A stretch of DNA of 4,534 nucleotides from positions 1 through 4,534 of IMG/VR virus record IMGVR_UViG_2778261058_000008; one strand, 5' to 3'. The notes beneath the pieces were generated by a model that saw only the letters and a program-made list of their open reading frames with translations, was not told the DNA's origin and ran no database searches. The position numbers and the translations under genes are program-made. The stretch comes from a virus. Its lineage: Duplodnaviria; Heunggongvirae; Uroviricota; Caudoviricetes. The number at the start of each line of letters is the position of its first letter. The first letter of the stretch is position 1. Below, one piece after another: positions 1 to 4,534 of this stretch.

Positions 1-2
1 GT

Positions 3-30
3 TTGCGGGAAAAGGAGAGTTAAGTAGAAT
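3..30 (+). promoter_or_regulatory. Candidate sigma70 promoter for the hok mRNA
   Basis: -35-like TTGCGG (3-8), 16-nt spacer, -10 TAGAAT (25-30). Predicted start near 37-39 sits just upstream of the conserved 5' hairpin and gives a ~415-nt transcript ending at the 432-453 terminator, the size expected for a full-length hok mRNA. Window edge truncates the upstream context. Confidence 0.35.
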
Positions 31-43
31 TGCTGCGGGTGCT

Positions 44-60
44 TGAGGCTATCTGCCTCA
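44..60 (+). promoter_or_regulatory. 5' stem-loop of the hok mRNA (tac-like element)
   Basis: TGAGGC (44-49) pairs with GCCTCA (55-60) around a 5-nt loop. The surrounding GCTTGAGGCTATCTGCCTCA closely matches the 5' end of the plasmid R1 hok mRNA as I recall it (GCUUGAGGCUUUCUGCCUCA). Confidence 0.4.
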
Positions 61-94
61 GGCATGAACACCAAAAGGCAGATAGAGAAAAGCC

Positions 95-173
95 CCAGTT
101 AACATTACGCGTCCTGCAAGACGCTTAACATTAATCTGAGGCCCAATCTATGTCTCACAAATGTAGGTTAGCC
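95..173 (-). ncRNA. Candidate Sok-like antisense RNA (type I antitoxin); boundaries approximate
   Basis: Placed by analogy to hok/sok: antisense to the mok-like initiation region. Minus strand has weak promoter candidates (TTGCCT-17-TAACCT, or a TAAGAG -10 that is conserved with my recollection of R1) and a hairpin GCGTC-loop-GACGC (complement of 109-124) followed by a U-rich stretch. Start and end cannot be fixed from sequence alone. Confidence 0.3.
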
Positions 174-362
174 TCTTACGTGCCGAAAGGCAAGGAGAAG
201 CAGGCTATGAAGCAGCAAAAGGCGATGTTAATCGCCCTGATCGTCATCTGTTTAACCGTCATAGTGACGGCACTGGTAACGAGGAAAGACCTCTGCGAGG
301 TACGAATCCGAACCGGCCAGACGGAGGTCGCTGTCTTCGTAGACTACGAATCTAGAGAGTAA
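150..362 (+). CDS. mok-equivalent reading frame, here in frame with hok (70 codons, would give an N-terminally extended Hok)
   Basis: ATG at 150 with GAGG (138-141) 8 nt upstream. Flanking CTATGTCT and AGCCTCTTAC match the mok start region of R1 as I recall it. In R1 mok is offset +1 from hok; here the mok-ATG to hok-ATG distance is 57 nt, so the frames coincide. Confidence 0.3.
   Translation: MSHKCRLASYVPKGKEKQAMKQQKAMLIALIVICLTVIVTALVTRKDLCEVRIRTGQTEVAVFVDYESRE
207..362 (+). CDS. hokD: Hok/Gef-family type I toxin, 51 aa (small membrane peptide)
   Basis: Translation MKQQKAMLIALIVICLTVIVTALVTRKDLCEVRIRTGQTEVAVFVDYESRE: single hydrophobic helix, conserved LTRK..LCE.R motif of Hok proteins, near-identical over most of its length to HokD/RelF of E. 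coli K-12 as I recall it. SD AAGGAG (192-197) 9 nt before the ATG. Gene symbol is by similarity and position, not verified. Confidence 0.85.
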   Translation: MKQQKAMLIALIVICLTVIVTALVTRKDLCEVRIRTGQTEVAVFVDYESRE

Positions 363-371
363 GAGAGACCA

Positions 372-393
372 GGCGGGAGAGTAATCTCCCGCC
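372..393 (+). promoter_or_regulatory. 3' stem-loop of the hok mRNA (fbi-like element)
   Basis: 9-bp stem GGCGGGAGA (372-380) / TCTCCCGCC (385-393) closed by a GUAA (GNRA) tetraloop, 10 nt after the hok stop. Assignment as the fold-back element is by analogy to hok mRNAs. Confidence 0.4.
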
Positions 394-431
394 ACCTCTG
401 ATGTGTCGGCATCCTCAACGCACCCGCGCTT

Positions 432-453
432 AACCCGCTTCGGCGGGTTTTTT
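432..453 (+). terminator. Intrinsic terminator ending the hok transcript
   Basis: Stem AACCCGC / GCGGGTT with a UUCG tetraloop (439-442), followed by six T (448-453). Confidence 0.7.
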
Positions 454-528
454 GTTTTACGTATTCTGGTTTACAATCCACAGGCCAGCCTGAACAACTG
501 GCACCTGCTGCGCCAGCAGAGAAAACAG

Positions 529-801
529 ATGGCGCACAATACCAAATTACACAATTCTGATACCGTTCGTGCCAGCAGGCACGGGCGGCGCTCTCACGCA
601 TTCAAATATGACTGGTATCAGCACGATCCCTGCACTGAAGAACAGGCCGAATGGCTGATTCAGAACTACCGCAGACGTGGGTATGAGTTTAAGAAAGCCC
701 TCAACCTCGATTATCGTCACTGGATAATCTACGTCAGACTCCCTTATTCCGAACGCCCACCGCGTCCGTCCCGCACATTCCAGCAACGCATCTGGAGGTA
801 A
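529..801 (+). CDS. Hypothetical small phage protein, 90 aa, at the position Rem occupies in Qin
   Basis: ATG at 529 (weak SD GAGAAA); stop TAA 799-801 lies 1 nt before the GTG of the next gene, so the two look coupled. The longer track ORF from 403 would start inside the hok terminator and is not favoured. No recognisable motif; function unknown. Confidence 0.5.
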   Translation: MAHNTKLHNSDTVRASRHGRRSHAFKYDWYQHDPCTEEQAEWLIQNYRRRGYEFKKALNLDYRHWIIYVRLPYSERPPRPSRTFQQRIWR

Positions 802-802
802 C

Positions 803-1852
803 GTGCGGGTATTGCTTCGACCTGTTCCGGTACCGGAACTCGGGCTGGTGGTCCTTAAGCCTGGTCGTGAATCCATGCAGGTATTTCATAACCCTCGAGT
901 GCTGGTGGAACCGGAACCGAAAAGCATGCGCGGTCTGCCGTCCGGAGTCGTTCCTGCCATTCGCCAGCCGCTGGCGGAAGACAAAACATTGCTGCCGTTT
1001 TTCAGTAACGAACGGGTGATTCGTGCTGCTGGCGGCGCTGGTGCACTTTCTGACTGGCTGTTGCGTCATGTCAAATCCTGCCAGTGGCCTCATGGCGACT
1101 ATCACCACAGCGAAACCGTCATACATCGTTACGGTACCGGCGCGATGGTGTTGTGCTGGCACTGCGACAACCAGCTGCGTGACCAGACTTCCGAATCACT
1201 CGGGCAACTTGCTCATCAAAACCTGTCAGCATGGATGACTGACGTCATCCGTCACGCAATGAATGGCACACAGGAGCGGGAATTATCGCTGGCTGAATTA
1301 TCCTGGTGGGCGGTCTGCAATCAGGTAGCGGACGCATTACCGGAGGCAGTATTACGTCGTTCGCTGGGATTGCGTGCGGAAAAAATCCGCTCAATGTACC
1401 GTGAAAGCGACATCGTACCGGGAGAGCAGACCGCCACCAGCATACTGAAGCAGCGCACAAAAAATCTTGCGCCGTTGCCTCACGTCCACCAGCAACAGAA
1501 CGCACCACAGGAAAAGACGGTGGTCAGCATTGCCGTAGATCCGGAGTCTCCGGAATCTTTCATGAAGCGACCTAAACGTCGCCGTTGGGTAAATGAGAAA
1601 TACACGCGCTGGGTGAAGACACAGCCGTGTGCGTGTTGTGGCAAGCCAGCCGACGATCCCCATCACCTGATTGGTCATGGTCAGGGAGGGATGGGAACAA
1701 AAGCCCACGATATTTTCACGCTACCGCTGTGCCGGGAACATCACAACGAGCTTCATGCGGATCCGCTGGCGTTCGAAGAAAAGCATGGTTCCCAGGTTGA
1801 TTTAATTTTTCGTTTTCTTGATCACGCCTTTGCAACTGGCGTGCTTGGGTAA
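803..1852 (+). CDS. ydfU: DUF968-family phage protein, 349 aa, with a C-terminal Cys/His-rich nuclease-like motif
   Basis: GTG start at 803 preceded by GGAGG (794-798). Same length and gene position as YdfU of Qin in my recollection. C-terminus reads CACCGKPADDPHHLIGHG...LPLCREHHNELH (about 1630-1760), resembling a zinc-binding HNH-like signature. Confidence 0.8.
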   Translation: MRVLLRPVPVPELGLVVLKPGRESMQVFHNPRVLVEPEPKSMRGLPSGVVPAIRQPLAEDKTLLPFFSNERVIRAAGGAGALSDWLLRHVKSCQWPHGDYHHSETVIHRYGTGAMVLCWHCDNQLRDQTSESLGQLAHQNLSAWMTDVIRHAMNGTQERELSLAELSWWAVCNQVADALPEAVLRRSLGLRAEKIRSMYRESDIVPGEQTATSILKQRTKNLAPLPHVHQQQNAPQEKTVVSIAVDPESPESFMKRPKRRRWVNEKYTRWVKTQPCACCGKPADDPHHLIGHGQGGMGTKAHDIFTLPLCREHHNELHADPLAFEEKHGSQVDLIFRFLDHAFATGVLG

Positions 1853-1864
1853 AAGAGGTGACTG

Positions 1865-2224
1865 ATGCTCATAGATTTGGTTTTACCTTACCCGCCGACG
1901 GTGAACACTTACTGGCGACGCCGTGGCAGCACATATTTTATCTCGGAGGAGGGAAAGCGTTATCGTCGGGCTGTGGCGCTTATTGTTCGCCAGCAGCGGC
2001 TGAAATTAAGCCTGTCCGGAAGGCTGGCGATAAAGGTGATTGCAGAGCCACCGGATAAGCGTCGTCGCGACCTGGACAATATCCTGAAAGCACCACTGGA
2101 TGCGTTGACGCATGCGGGGTTGCTTATCGACGACGAGCAGTTTGATGAAATCAATATTGTGCGCGGTCAGGTCGTTCCTGGTGGTCGGCTGGGGATAAAA
2201 ATCACAGAGCTGGAGTGCGCATGA
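1865..2224 (+). CDS. rusA: RusA-family Holliday junction resolvase, 119 aa
   Basis: SD GAGGTG (1855-1860) then ATG 1865. Translation carries the RusA core PDKRRRDLDN...LIDDEQ; the three Asp at 69, 71 and 90 line up with the catalytic D70/D72/D91 of E. coli RusA. Confidence 0.9.
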   Translation: MLIDLVLPYPPTVNTYWRRRGSTYFISEEGKRYRRAVALIVRQQRLKLSLSGRLAIKVIAEPPDKRRRDLDNILKAPLDALTHAGLLIDDEQFDEINIVRGQVVPGGRLGIKITELECA

Positions 2225-2910
2225 ATAACCAGTATTTACAGTTTGTTCGTGAGCAGCTCATTATCGCCACCGCCGATTTGAGTGGGGCAACAAAAGGTCA
2301 GCTTGAAGCCTGGCAGGAGAATGCCATGTTCGATACAGGGCGTTACAGGCGTAAAAAAATCCGGTACCGCGATGAAGTGACCGGAAAAATGATCACGCGG
2401 GATAATCCACCAATCCCGGGGAAACAATCGCTGGCGAAGGGGACGTCAATTCCTCTGGTAAGTCAGGTTGAGTTTTCGACATCATCATGGCGACGGGCAG
2501 TTCTGTCTCTTGAAGAACATCATAAAACCTGGTTGTTGTGGTGTTACAGCGGGAGTATTTGCTGGGAGTATCAGGTCACCATAACCCGCTGGGCATGGGA
2601 AGAGTTTAAGGCTCATTCTGGCAACAGGAAAATTGCAGAGAAAACACGGGAGCGCCTGAAAAAATTAATCTGGCTGGCGGCACAGGATGTGAAGAGTGAG
2701 CTAGCTGGGCGTGAAACTTATGAATATCAGGAACTGGCATTACTGGCGGGAGTAACAACAAAAAACTGGTCCAAAACATTTACTGGTCACTGGGTTGCAA
2801 TGAAACACATTTTCCACCGGCTGGATAGTGAGGCTTTATTGTTTGTGATGAGAACACGCTCAGAACAAAAGACGGCATTTTCAAAGCAAAGTGTTGCAAA
2901 AGTAGATTAA
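2221..2910 (+). CDS. Late-gene antiterminator Q-like protein (Q82/Qin-type), 229 aa
   Basis: ATG 2221 overlaps the rusA stop (ATGA at 2221-2224) with GGAG 5 nt upstream; an in-frame GTG at 2215 is an alternative start. Gene lies directly after rusA, and its 3' end overlaps a promoter that is followed about 70 nt later by a terminator, the geometry of Q / PR' / tR'. Family call rests on context and general resemblance, not a search. Confidence 0.6.
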   Translation: MNNQYLQFVREQLIIATADLSGATKGQLEAWQENAMFDTGRYRRKKIRYRDEVTGKMITRDNPPIPGKQSLAKGTSIPLVSQVEFSTSSWRRAVLSLEEHHKTWLLWCYSGSICWEYQVTITRWAWEEFKAHSGNRKIAEKTRERLKKLIWLAAQDVKSELAGRETYEYQELALLAGVTTKNWSKTFTGHWVAMKHIFHRLDSEALLFVMRTRSEQKTAFSKQSVAKVD

Positions 2911-2922
2911 AAGGCATATATT
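2894..2922 (+). promoter_or_regulatory. PR'-like late promoter overlapping the 3' end of the Q-like gene
   Basis: -35 TTGCAA (2894-2899), 17-bp spacer, -10 TATATT (2917-2922); predicted start near 2929-2930. Confidence 0.45.
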
Positions 2923-2928
2923 TCGTGC

Positions 2929-2999
2929 AAATCTGATATTTTGCCGATTTTGTACTCGATGGCAAAGTAAGCAAATCCCGCCGCCGAGCGGGTTTTTTT
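2929..2999 (+). ncRNA. Short terminated late-promoter transcript, about 70 nt (analogous to lambda 6S RNA / StxS)
   Basis: Runs from the predicted PR'-like start to the T-tract of the tR'-like terminator; no ORF with an SD inside. Confidence 0.3.
2977..2999 (+). terminator. tR'-like intrinsic terminator
   Basis: Stem CCCGC (2977-2981) / GCGGG (2988-2992), 6-nt loop, seven T (2993-2999). Confidence 0.75.
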
Positions 3000-3014
3000 G
3001 TTGGCTTAACAGGT

Positions 3015-3020
3015 TATAAT
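3015..3020 (+). promoter_or_regulatory. Consensus -10 hexamer TATAAT; possible moron promoter for the MazF-like gene
   Basis: Perfect TATAAT 84 nt upstream of the ATG at 3104, but only a T-rich, poor -35 that overlaps the terminator T-tract. Confidence 0.3.
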
Positions 3021-3103
3021 GTATAGTGCGAAACTGCCTGTTCAGCAGAATCATTTTGTTTGTAGTGGAGTTCACAAGTCGTCATTATCAGGCAAAGAGA
3101 TTT

Positions 3104-3505
3104 ATGGTATTAAAGTATCAGCCGTCTGTTCGTTCTGTTTTAATGTGTGATTTTCGGGGAATGGTTGTTCCGGAAATAGTCAAGGTCAGGCCAGTGGTGG
3201 TCGTGTCCAGAAACAGGCACAACAATCAATTGGTAACAGTGGTACCAATAAGCACTACTGAACCGCTCCCTCGCAGAGATTGCCATCATGAGTTATCAGA
3301 AAACCCCATACCTGGTAATGAGCATATTACTTGCTGGGTAAAATGTGACATGTTGATGACGGTTTCATTGAGCCGACTGGATCGCATAAAAACCAGAACC
3401 TGGGAGGGACGAAATTATATTGTTCCTATGATTGCGGAAGATGAGTTTGAGAATATTAAACGGGCGGTATTGCACGGGATAGGGATGGCTTATCTGTATC
3501 GATAA
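3104..3505 (+). CDS. MazF/PemK/Kid-fold (CcdB/MazF superfamily) toxin-like protein, 133 aa, with no adjacent antitoxin ORF
   Basis: ATG 3104 with SD AAAGAGA (3094-3100). Translation SVLMCDFRGMVVPEIVKVRPVVVVSRNRHNNQLVTVVPISTTEP matches the MazF pattern (IWVDFDP...HRPAVVLS...CVPCTT) with the same 11-residue spacing between DF and RP; C-terminal region also aligns loosely. Could alternatively belong to an uncharacterised phage late-region family such as the YbcV/YdfO (DUF1398) type; I cannot tell them apart without a search. Confidence 0.6.
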   Translation: MVLKYQPSVRSVLMCDFRGMVVPEIVKVRPVVVVSRNRHNNQLVTVVPISTTEPLPRRDCHHELSENPIPGNEHITCWVKCDMLMTVSLSRLDRIKTRTWEGRNYIVPMIAEDEFENIKRAVLHGIGMAYLYR

Positions 3506-3529
3506 TCGAAAACGATTATCGAATTCGAT
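3499..3529. repeat. Palindrome cluster overlapping the stop codon of the MazF-like gene
   Basis: Perfect 10-bp inverted repeat TCGATAATCG (3499-3508) / CGATTATCGA (3513-3522) with an AAAA spacer, overlapping a 12-bp perfect palindrome ATCGAATTCGAT (3518-3529). Stop codon TAA is at 3503-3505. Confidence 0.7.
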
Positions 3530-3540
3530 ATGAATTTATA

Positions 3541-3569
3541 TTGACACACATAGTGTGTTGGCTGATACT
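3541..3569 (+). promoter_or_regulatory. Strong sigma70 promoter candidate with a palindrome in the spacer
   Basis: Consensus -35 TTGACA (3541-3546), 17-bp spacer, -10 GATACT (3564-3569), AT-rich tract upstream (3530-3540). Spacer holds ACACA-TAG-TGTGT (3546-3558), which looks like an operator. Confidence 0.5.
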
Positions 3570-3575
3570 GTCGCT

Positions 3576-3690
3576 GTACCCTGATGGGACTTGTGAGACT
3601 TCCGAACAGGAAGCCAGGAGTAGCGATGAGGTGATGACAAGCCTGCTGCCCCTGTGTAAAAGGCACCTTAATGGTGCCTTTGTCGTTTTT
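3576..3690 (+). ncRNA. Candidate small RNA, about 115 nt (about 148 nt if it reads to the second terminator at 3723)
   Basis: Defined by the promoter at 3541-3569 and the hairpin plus T-tract at 3659-3690. Only trivial ORFs inside: a 2-codon ORF after AGGAG (3616-3620) and a 25-codon frame from ATG 3634 that runs through the terminator stem and has no properly spaced SD. Confidence 0.3.
3659..3690 (+). terminator. Intrinsic terminator candidate
   Basis: Stem AAGGCACC / GGTGCCTT around loop TTAAT, then GTCG and five T (3686-3690). Confidence 0.5.
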
Positions 3691-3700
3691 ATCAAAAGAT

Positions 3701-3723
3701 CCCGCCACTGAGCGGGTTTTTTT
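3701..3723 (+). terminator. Intrinsic terminator; near-identical second copy of the tR'-like terminator
   Basis: Stem CCCGC (3701-3705) / GCGGG (3712-3716), 6-nt loop, seven T (3717-3723). ATCCCGCC...GAGCGGGTTTTTTTGT is shared with 2974-3002; only two loop bases differ. Confidence 0.75.
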
Positions 3724-3845
3724 GTGTCCTAAAAACGGCACAGGACGTTAAACGCGCTGGTGGTTGCGAATACGGGTCTTTCAGCTTGCTGGCTTTTTCG
3801 ACAAGAGTTATTGGTATGTCACGTTAACCAGAAAAGGAAAAAGAC

Positions 3846-4043
3846 ATGCTAAAACAGCAGGATATGACCGAAACTGCCAGAGTAGTGTTTAATGAATTGA
3901 GCGTCACCGAACCGGCGACCGTCGGGGAAATTGCGCAGAACACGTACCTTTCACGCGAACGCTGCCAGTTAATACTGACTCAGCTTGTTATGGCAGGTCT
4001 GGCAGATTATCAGTTCGGTTGTTACAGACGCCTTTCGCAGTGA
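3846..4043 (+). CDS. Small 65-aa protein, probable winged-helix/HTH DNA-binding protein
   Basis: SD AAGGA (3834-3838) 7 nt before ATG 3846. Segment ATVGEIAQNTYLSRERCQLILTQLVMAGL has helix-turn-helix character. Function is inferred, not established. Confidence 0.6.
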   Translation: MLKQQDMTETARVVFNELSVTEPATVGEIAQNTYLSRERCQLILTQLVMAGLADYQFGCYRRLSQ

Positions 4044-4193
4044 AGGTTTTTTTATTTGTGGTAATGGGCGGCTGGTGGGTGTTAGCGGCACCTGCCAGCC
4101 ATCTGCTCATGCGTTGGGGTCACAAGCAAACCTCAGGCCCATCTGCTTTGCGCAAAAGCGGTATGAGCCTATCAGAGAAGTGCTTATTGATCT

Positions 4194-4534
4194 ATGGCTA
4201 ATACTGTAAAAATATCCAGTTGTGAGTTAATCAACGCTGATTGCCTGGAATTTATCCAGACCTTACCGGAAAACTCTGTCGATCTGATAGTCACAGACCC
4301 GCCATACTTTAAAGTGAAGCCCGAGGGCTGGGATAACCAGTGGAAGGGCGACGATGATTACCTGAAATGGCTGGATCAGTGTCTGGCGCAATTCTGGCGG
4401 GTACTGAAACCTGCCGGAAGTCTCTACCTGTTCTGTGGTCATCGCCTGGCATCTGACACCGAAATCATGATGCGTCAGCGCTTTAATGTGCTGAACCACA
4501 TTATCTGGGCGAAGCCGTCCGGACGCTGGAACGG
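4194..4534 (+). CDS. N6-adenine DNA methyltransferase (N6_N4 MTase type), 5' part only; runs off the window
   Basis: Hand translation from ATG 4194 gives MANTVKISSCELINADCLEFIQTLPENSVDLIVTDPPYF... with the catalytic DPPY motif in the SVDLI-x-x-DPPY context seen in beta-class adenine methylases such as E. coli YhdJ. In-frame TGA directly upstream (4188-4190) fixes the start. No stop before the window end, which is why it is missing from the ORF track. Confidence 0.85.
   Translation, partial: MANTVKISSCELINADCLEFIQTLPENSVDLIVTDPPYFKVKPEGWDNQWKGDDDYLKWLDQCLAQFWRVLKPAGSLYLFCGHRLASDTEIMMRQRFNVLNHIIWAKPSGRWN

Follow-up and report, generated by a model that had tools for sequence, protein, structure and literature searches.

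The window, as we call the whole stretch of DNA analysed here, comprises 4,534 nucleotides (nt) of a tailed-phage record (IMG/VR IMGVR_UViG_2778261058_000008, positions 1 to 4,534). It is part of a lambdoid Escherichia coli prophage with the gene order sok/hok, DUF968, rusA, Q, a PR'-like unit, a toxin gene, an RNA gene, a small helix-turn-helix (HTH) gene and a DNA methylase gene, the last two lying downstream of the RNA. This report concerns the toxin gene, which encodes a MazF-fold protein of the YifN family, and the short transcription unit behind it at 3541-3690, which encodes a structured RNA. The features of this pair are as follows.

3104-3505, + strand: toxin gene, encoding a 133-amino-acid (aa) PemK/MazF-fold protein of the YifN family (PF02452, E=5.6e-14)
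3541-3569, + strand: promoter of the RNA, with -35 TTGACA at 3541-3546, a 17-nt spacer and -10 GATACT at 3564-3569 (sequence scan)
3576-3690, + strand: structured RNA of ~115 nt (alignment A3, RNAalifold and model R1, all described below)
3659-3690, + strand: terminator 1, stem 3659-3681 followed by GTCGTTTTT; the same as hairpin D of the RNA family
3701-3723, + strand: terminator 2, phage-type, stem 3701-3716 followed by T7; a 93% copy of 2975-3001

An earlier sequence-only reading of the window had described a consensus -35, a 17-nt spacer and a -10 GATACT, followed by a transcript of ~115 nt and two terminators with no credible open reading frame (ORF) between them, and all of these are present. 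In our scan the promoter scores 10/12, the top sigma-70 match of the window. The scan by itself is unconvincing because eight sites scoring at least 9/12 were found in the window versus 4.6 ± 2.0 in shuffled sequence, which is not significant; the support for the promoter comes from conservation. In 19 of 36 lineages, where 1.1 would be expected, the pattern TTGnnn-16/18-nAnnnT keeps a constant distance to the 5' end of the RNA, and most of the other toxin-linked loci have a near-miss. Several lineages have this promoter inside the final codons of the toxin ORF, and most divergent RNA members have their own TTGACT-17-TAATACT promoter at the same distance from the conserved 5' GUACCC. The palindrome noticed in the spacer, ACACA-TAG-TGTGT, is indeed present at 3546-3558. 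It occurs only in a near-identical E. coli lineage and homologous promoters elsewhere have unrelated spacers; the repressor control proposed for it was not upheld, and an operator at this site was rejected.

From a start near G3576, the predicted transcript is ~110-115 nt long to terminator 1 and ~148 nt to terminator 2. The 150 nt beginning at 3576 fold with -58.6 kcal/mol, z = -5.4 relative to dinucleotide shuffles. The sole forward ORF, a TTG frame of 56 codons, has its start within the -35 hexamer, and the substitution pattern is RNA-like, with compensatory pairs. A tRNA scan of the locus found none, and an Rfam 15 cmscan of the whole window (E<=1) gave no match in 3541-3723, finding only sok at 37-212 and weak matches elsewhere. 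Thus, the positions of the promoter and terminators, the fold z-score, the lack of an Rfam or tRNA match and the poor ORF indicate that the original observation was correct, and the proposal of an independent small RNA (sRNA) transcription unit adjoining a toxin-like gene is supported. The two terminators do not form one designed unit, as had been suggested. Membership of the RNA family is limited to the first hairpin; the second lies outside the conserved RNA, is different or absent in other members, and is a duplicated phage terminator. In one genome (L279, NZ_CP027586, 1602-1799), RefSeq annotates a 65-aa 'hypothetical protein' over the 3' half of the RNA and the terminators; its frame is not conserved in the family, and this call, found in some genomes, is probably a mis-call.

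Homologous RNAs were collected by pattern scans of viral and metagenome contigs followed by profile searches, yielding an alignment (A3) of 34 distinct sequences. A 15-mer scan of genome contigs returned mostly chance matches, with two Candidatus Phlomobacter loci as the only real ones. The consensus architecture, in window coordinates, is given below.

3579-3588, + strand: hairpin A (RNAalifold)
3588-3598, + strand: single-stranded motif GACUUGUGAGA (conserved)
3599-3613, + strand: hairpin B (RNAalifold)
3615-3654, + strand: hairpin C, long and bipartite, with apical loop GAUGACAA at 3633-3640
3661-3679, + strand: hairpin D, the terminator, followed by the tail UUGUCGUUUUU at 3680-3690
3680-3686, + strand: conserved part of the tail, UUGUC(A/G)U, complementary to loop C (AUGACAA), a candidate pseudoknot

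RNAalifold placed 27 pairs in these four hairpins, and 17 of the 27 show compensatory double changes. The covariation analysis that the sequence-only reading had proposed gave a positive result, and its controls were passed. With this structure 97.7% of cells are paired, versus 38-54% when partners were slid by 1-3 columns; double-change cells number 63 versus 2-14 with slid partners; and none of 500 shuffles attained any of the observed pairing measures. Little or no variation is seen in three single-stranded stretches: GGRCUUGYRAGAC, the loop C sequence GCGAU(G/A)ACAAGC and the 3' tail UUGUC(A/G/U)U. A covariance model (R1) detects the RNA beside toxins in unrelated loci. The element is thus a conserved structured RNA family outside the Rfam models.

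Pairing between loop C and the 3' tail is possible in 96.6% of cells, without covariation inside the alignment. Distant subfamilies display double changes of loop and tail (AUAACAA/UUGUUUU, AUUGCAA/UUGCUUU and ACGGCAA/UUGCCUU), along with several mismatches. From these sequence comparisons we consider a pseudoknot between loop C and the tail probable. An alternative pseudoknot, CUUGU/ACAAG, is compatible with the structure; it shows no covariation and has one pair broken in 7/34 sequences. A BLAST search of the element against 50,697 phage records (INPHARED) gave no match, which rules out sequence kinship with StxS, lambda 6S and every other RNA in those records. It is also rare in E. coli, being found in 37 of 5,426 complete genomes, and its conserved sequence strings were absent from papers in a full-text literature search.

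The linkage between RNA and toxin was assessed from both sides. Beginning with the RNA, we took 67 instances and grouped all the ORFs lying within 3.5 kb of each into clusters. The sole widely shared neighbour is a PemK/MazF-like gene immediately upstream on the same strand, present at 37 of the 67 instances including the most divergent RNAs, and the other neighbours vary. Beginning with the toxin, a profile (A4) retrieved 67 viral loci. All 18 close loci carry the RNA, and so do 34 of 49 distant loci (toxin identity ~36-65%) as judged by a covariance-model match with E<0.01; 33 of these 34 matches lie directly after the toxin stop codon, 12-79 nt behind it in the loci measured. In the remaining distant subfamily, with toxins of 135-158 aa, a variant RNA of the same architecture with the loop GAGAUUGCAAUC follows 72-90 nt after the stop in 13/13 complete loci. 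Additionally, the RNA follows at 4-94 nt in 3/3 distant chromosomal toxin homologues tested (95-102 bits), whose neighbours are response-regulator and other non-phage genes. Among the E. coli complete genomes, toxin and RNA are adjacent in 24, among them E. coli SE11 (NC_011415), where a BLAST match at 1768921-1769117 (minus strand) covers both RNA and promoter; the RNA occurs without the toxin in 13 and the toxin without the RNA in none. We are confident that the RNA gene is real and functionally coupled to the toxin. Our full-text literature search found no description of an RNA partner of yifN or of PemK/MazF-type toxins.

The assignment of the protein to the MazF fold required a fold search, as neither the PADLOC defence models nor a PDB sequence search gave a match. 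The AlphaFold2 model has a mean confidence (predicted local distance difference test, pLDDT) of 91.3, and with this model the top 50 PDB matches in Foldseek are all MazF RNases. Within the motifs RPVVV and VVPxSTT, R29 and T52 never vary and S50 and T51 hardly do; these residues are presumably equivalent to the MazF catalytic ones. Homologues number more than 1,500 clusters at E<=1e-5, some of them named 'YifN (PemK superfamily)' by the Joint Genome Institute (JGI), and YifN-type toxins are spread across Proteobacteria and their phages. Further features of the toxin transcript are listed here.

3015-3020, + strand: probable -10 of the toxin, TATAAT, without a good -35; read from the sequence, it implies a 5' untranslated region (5'UTR) of ~77 nt
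3073-3089, + strand: segment of the toxin 5'UTR complementary to the RNA (duplex energies)
3499-3522, + strand: perfect 10-bp hairpin TCGATAATCG-AAAA-CGATTATCGA across the toxin stop codon, without a U-tract

Comparable -10 elements lie upstream of toxin 5'UTRs in other lineages. The hairpin at the stop codon could stabilise a 3' end, or it could serve for processing between toxin ORF and RNA promoter. Between the terminator at 2977-2999 and the toxin ATG at 3104 the only frame, of 43 codons (3019-3150), extends into the start of the toxin gene. Flanking ORFs of at least 35 aa form no cluster common to 60 distinct toxin loci, indicating that the usual MazE/PemI partner is missing.

The RNA is complementary to the 5'UTR of the toxin at two adjoining sites. 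In the window, CACAAGTC (3073-3080) is the perfect complement of the 5' motif GACUUGUG (3588-3595), forming a duplex of -15.2 kcal/mol (p=0.016; duplex significance is relative to dinucleotide-shuffled UTRs). The adjacent GTCATTATC (3081-3089) pairs with the loop C region GGUGAUGAC (3630-3638) over 9 bp including two G.U pairs, at -12.9 kcal/mol. At three Enterobacter/Klebsiella-type loci (L209, L212 and L214), a UTR 11-mer, TTGTCATCACC, that is homologous to the 3081-3089 site perfectly complements the loop C sequence GGUGAUGACAA. Ten of 34 lineages (8/28 plus 2/6 of the distant subfamily) have a significant duplex of loop C with the 5'UTR. Loop and UTR also change jointly, as GGUGAUGAC/GUCAUCACC, GGCGAUGACA/UGUCAUCGUC (L222) and GAGAUUGCAAUC/GAUUGCAUCUC (L254), and cognate pairs outscore permuted non-cognate pairs (p=0.005, permutation test). 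Two further matches were seen in the window: 5'UTR positions 3034-3053 are 75% complementary over 20 nt to hairpin B (3594-3613), with CCUGUUC/GAACAGG perfect, and toxin codons 4-7 (3114-3123) are perfectly complementary over 10 nt to the -10 region of the RNA promoter (3560-3569), where ~0.4 such 10-mers are expected by chance.

The best explanation, which we hold to be probable on the basis of sequence comparison, is that 3541-3690 is a stand-alone gene for a structured sRNA of ~115 nt that is the conserved partner of the upstream YifN toxin and would be its antitoxin, acting at least in part through antisense. The RNA is probably the toxin's antidote because it lies directly after a MazF-like toxin gene that has no protein antidote, in many bacteria and phages. 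Of the three roles offered by the sequence-only reading (regulatory sRNA, RNA antitoxin, or leader of the downstream genes), the antitoxin is the one we favour, given the toxin-then-RNA order in both search directions, the absence of a conserved protein antitoxin and the loop-5'UTR complementarity; the antitoxin role taken by itself also appears rather probable. In the proposed mechanism, the strong constitutive sigma-70 promoter would produce RNA in excess over toxin mRNA, the toxin promoter being weaker with a -10 element only. Readthrough of the toxin mRNA to the same terminator would also place the RNA sequence in the 3'UTR of that mRNA. Loop C (8 nt), together with the pairs that close it (GGUGAUGACAAG), would then pair with the site in the toxin 5'UTR, and in the window the 5' motif GACUUGUG would pair with the neighbouring UTR segment. 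Such pairing would block translation or destabilise the toxin mRNA, a type I logic applied to a toxin usual in type II. Antisense pairing as a main mechanism is a real possibility that falls a little short of probable. The three invariant motifs and the probable loop C-tail pseudoknot suggest a further conserved partner, maybe the toxin protein, which would amount to type III-like sequestration. The comparisons show the RNA family with its structure and promoter, its linkage to the toxin, the lack of a conserved protein antitoxin and the complementarity, whereas toxicity, its neutralisation and the dominant one of these two mechanisms are inferred.

Several observations weigh against this explanation. 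The loop C duplex of the window taken alone has p=0.18, and the corresponding duplex is not significant in 24 of 34 lineages; the p-values are moreover approximate because the sampled lineages are not independent. Pairing of the 5' motif with the UTR as a family-wide feature was rejected, since its mean z is 0 and it holds in the window lineage only. No UTR target is as well conserved as the near-invariant RNA motifs, which points instead to a protein or host partner. At one locus (L247, 1370-1480), an RNA-like match of 29 bits lies just upstream of the toxin, the only reversed order seen. Lastly, orphan RNA copies are frequent (13 of the 37 E. coli genomes with the element) and are located in late-promoter leaders or tail modules of phages; the RNA may therefore serve some other purpose, or a second one.

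The orphans mostly lack a promoter of their own and depend on upstream transcription, for example in PR' leaders. In three of the loci (L001, L002 and L004) the RNA element lies just after a Q gene. Comparison of the window with L001 (NZ_CP075852, 3990-4010) reveals an exact insertion/deletion of 3055-3548, which holds the toxin gene, at a CAT microhomology. L001-type prophages have lost the toxin and kept the RNA with its -10 and without its -35, a natural 'antitoxin-only' derivative. L002 and L004 (each at 3920-4117) have a different Q of 273 aa, and the RNA body lies at about +45 of a lambda-type PR' leader. Their homology to the window begins at 3579, and the 87 nt upstream align with the lambda PR' -10 TAAATT and the AACGATGGG pause element; with the RNA body inside such a leader, the late promoter would make the RNA constitutively. 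Three other orphans of ~120 nt (L159, within 4582-4704; L174, within 3727-3851; L199, within 4531-4655) are located between tail-fibre and baseplate genes (PHROG tail families) of unrelated phages. The L159 orphan has its own TTGACT-17-AATACT promoter, from which it appears that the RNA travels as an independent add-on gene.

Decayed copies were also found. At L237 (1500-1870) the toxin is a pseudogene with several stops and unrelated DNA stands in place of the RNA gene. E. coli K-12 (L267, NC_000913.3, 3959900-3960460, minus strand) has a yifN pseudogene followed by a truncated RNA-like remnant (19 bits, E=3e-4), in which hairpin A, ACCUGCGAAGC, a hairpin and UUUGCCAU are recognisable in order. 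Toxin and RNA seem to have decayed together in K-12, and the pattern of loss at L001, L237 and K-12 yifN would fit toxin-antitoxin logic.

The other features of the window that bear on its interpretation are these.

37-362: complete hok/sok type I toxin-antitoxin locus (Rfam sok at 37-212, 121.7 bits; Hok-family ORF at 150-362)
2215-2910: antiterminator Q gene (PF06323)
2894-2999: PR'-like promoter TTGCAA-17-TATATT, overlapping the Q stop codon, and its terminator at 2977-2999
2975-3001, + strand: terminator copy upstream of the toxin, closing the short PR'-like transcript after Q

The window thus holds two RNA-linked toxin modules, hok/sok and the MazF-like toxin with its RNA. The PR'-like promoter gives a transcript of ~70 nt with a weak Rfam isrK match (19.5 bits, E=0.5), and by analogy this is probably a short constitutive late-promoter RNA of the prophage, comparable to lambda 6S, StxS or the 66-nt HnrS. 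A 27-nt direct repeat (93%) of one intrinsic terminator, at 2975-3001 and 3699-3725, flanks the toxin-RNA cassette, which suggests insertion of the cassette, or regional duplication, at the phage tR' terminator.

An antitoxin RNA could also act purely in the type III manner, an alternative we regard as unlikely although it has several points in its favour. Here the pseudoknotted RNA would bind and inhibit the MazF-fold protein, perhaps with the ACA-containing loop GAUGACAAG as a pseudo-substrate, and pairing with mRNA would be inessential. The three motifs are invariant or nearly so across lineages with unrelated toxin 5'UTRs, the toxin protein is the most conserved candidate partner, double changes back the loop C-tail pseudoknot and the loop sequence shifts along with the toxin subfamily. 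The Kid/MazF-like fold of ToxN and the pseudoknotted form of ToxI count on the same side. However, there are no tandem repeats, the toxin precedes the RNA, opposite to the RNA-terminator-toxin order of ToxIN, and the complementarity of loop and UTR and the better cognate scores would be left unexplained. Alternatively, the RNA sequence could be a cis-acting 3'UTR element, with pairing between 5'UTR and 3'UTR tuning translation or stability of the toxin mRNA and the small transcript being secondary. No terminator separates the toxin stop codon from the RNA, which begins 3-20 nt after the stop in many lineages, and the same complementarity would be workable in cis. A dedicated promoter at a fixed distance, even within the toxin ORF, and toxin-less orphans that keep an intact covarying structure are not what such an element predicts, and we consider it improbable.

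Two further explanations start from the phage late region. The RNA could be a general trans-acting prophage sRNA that acts on host or phage mRNAs or sRNAs, in the manner of StxS, HnrS, DicF or lambda 6S, its link to the toxin being co-mobilisation only. Its own promoter and intrinsic terminator, its place in the prophage late region and the orphans in lambda-type PR' leaders and tail modules agree with this, and StxS and HnrS are precedents for sRNAs from that region, as positional analogues only (PMC7547250, PMC13502914). Against it, the RNA follows the toxin in non-phage chromosomal settings of unrelated Proteobacteria, toxin-only loci are absent and there is no similarity to INPHARED phage records, making a general sRNA distinctly improbable. 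The idea of a late leader was considered first because the element lies after Q in L001, L002 and L004. As the primary identity, a late-operon leader like lambda 6S or StxS (PMC7547250) was dropped given the RNA's own promoter, its toxin linkage and its chromosomal copies. That the unit is a mere terminated PR'-tR' late leader, or an insulator before the HTH and methylase genes, with no function of the RNA itself, now seems very improbable indeed. The promoter and double terminator downstream of Q, and the L002/L004 body behind a lambda-like PR' with its AACGATGGG pause element, would suit it; however, the PR'-like unit of the window is at 2894-2999 directly after Q and the RNA unit 640 nt further on, the hairpins before the terminator covary, and the family occurs far from Q genes with variable downstream genes. 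The suggestion that the RNA serves as a leader for the HTH and methylase genes fails likewise, as the downstream genes are wholly different between loci (tRNAs, holin, tail genes and response regulators).

Read as an RNA antitoxin, the unit would by analogy have its closest counterparts, in its way of working, in RalR/RalA and SymE/SymR, two trans-encoded type I pairs, and it has some ToxI-like features. It shares with RalR/RalA of the rac prophage and with SymE/SymR the lack of a protein antitoxin, an adjacent and separately promoted sRNA, a short complementarity to the toxin mRNA (here 9-11 nt), a prophage location and the combination of a strong RNA promoter with a weak toxin promoter. Unlike in those pairs, toxin and RNA share a strand with the RNA downstream, only part of the family shows complementarity and invariant motifs suggest an additional partner. 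Type I toxins are typically small (<60 aa) hydrophobic peptides. The toxin here is a 133-aa MazF-fold RNase homologue, neither such a peptide nor a DNase nor an AbrB-fold protein, and the unit is therefore not classical type I.

Similar to the type III systems ToxIN, CptIN and TenpIN, the unit combines an endoribonuclease-type toxin with a structured, probably pseudoknotted RNA, has no protein antitoxin and is found on phages and mobile elements; the phage-borne orphan RNAs recall the pseudo-ToxI escape genes of type III. In contrast to these systems, there is a single four-hairpin RNA of ~115 nt that follows the toxin and no tandem array, Tandem Repeats Finder (TRF) returning at the window locus only a 13-nt, 2.5-copy hairpin artefact at 3498-3530, and in Pfam the toxin matches only PF02452 (PemK_toxin) and not ToxN/AbiQ, CptN or TenpN. 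Because it has no repeats, the opposite gene order and a toxin outside the ToxN family, the unit is not type III. With the type II systems MazEF and PemIK (Kis-Kid), it has in common a PF02452 toxin whose fold matches solved MazF structures, and an invariant Arg and Thr in RPVVV/VVPxSTT. Unlike them, it has no MazE/PemI-like or other conserved protein gene on either side in the 60 distinct loci and an RNA gene in the partner position, and without a protein antitoxin it is not type II. Like lambda 6S, StxS and HnrS, the unit lies between Q and the late genes and consists of a constitutive promoter followed by an intrinsic terminator, and in relatives of the L002, L004 and L146 type the RNA body is truly inside the PR' leader, as in lambdoid late transcripts. 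It differs from those RNAs in having no sequence homology to them, in its own promoter 640 nt past the PR'-like unit and in also occurring on chromosomes with no phage genes near.

MazF and PemK are textbook toxins neutralised by protein. As a tentative proposal that we rate as less likely than not, the YifN toxins (>1,500 clusters) might constitute an unrecognised toxin-antitoxin class. Its antitoxin would be a single pseudoknotted sRNA of ~115 nt, made from a promoter in the 3'-terminal part of the toxin gene and acting in two ways, by pairing with the 5'UTR and by binding the toxin protein, in effect a hybrid of types I and III built on a type II scaffold; toxin-less copies in late-promoter leaders might then be anti-defence decoys against YifN toxins of the host or of rival prophages. 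If this is true, a large and widespread branch of MazF toxins in which a conserved structured RNA replaces the protein antitoxin would blur the division into type I, II and III, and would account for annotation pipelines calling YifN genes orphan 'type II toxins'. It would also mean a new RNA family in the genomes of phages and bacteria, and phages that have the RNA without the toxin may use it for immunity or anti-defence.

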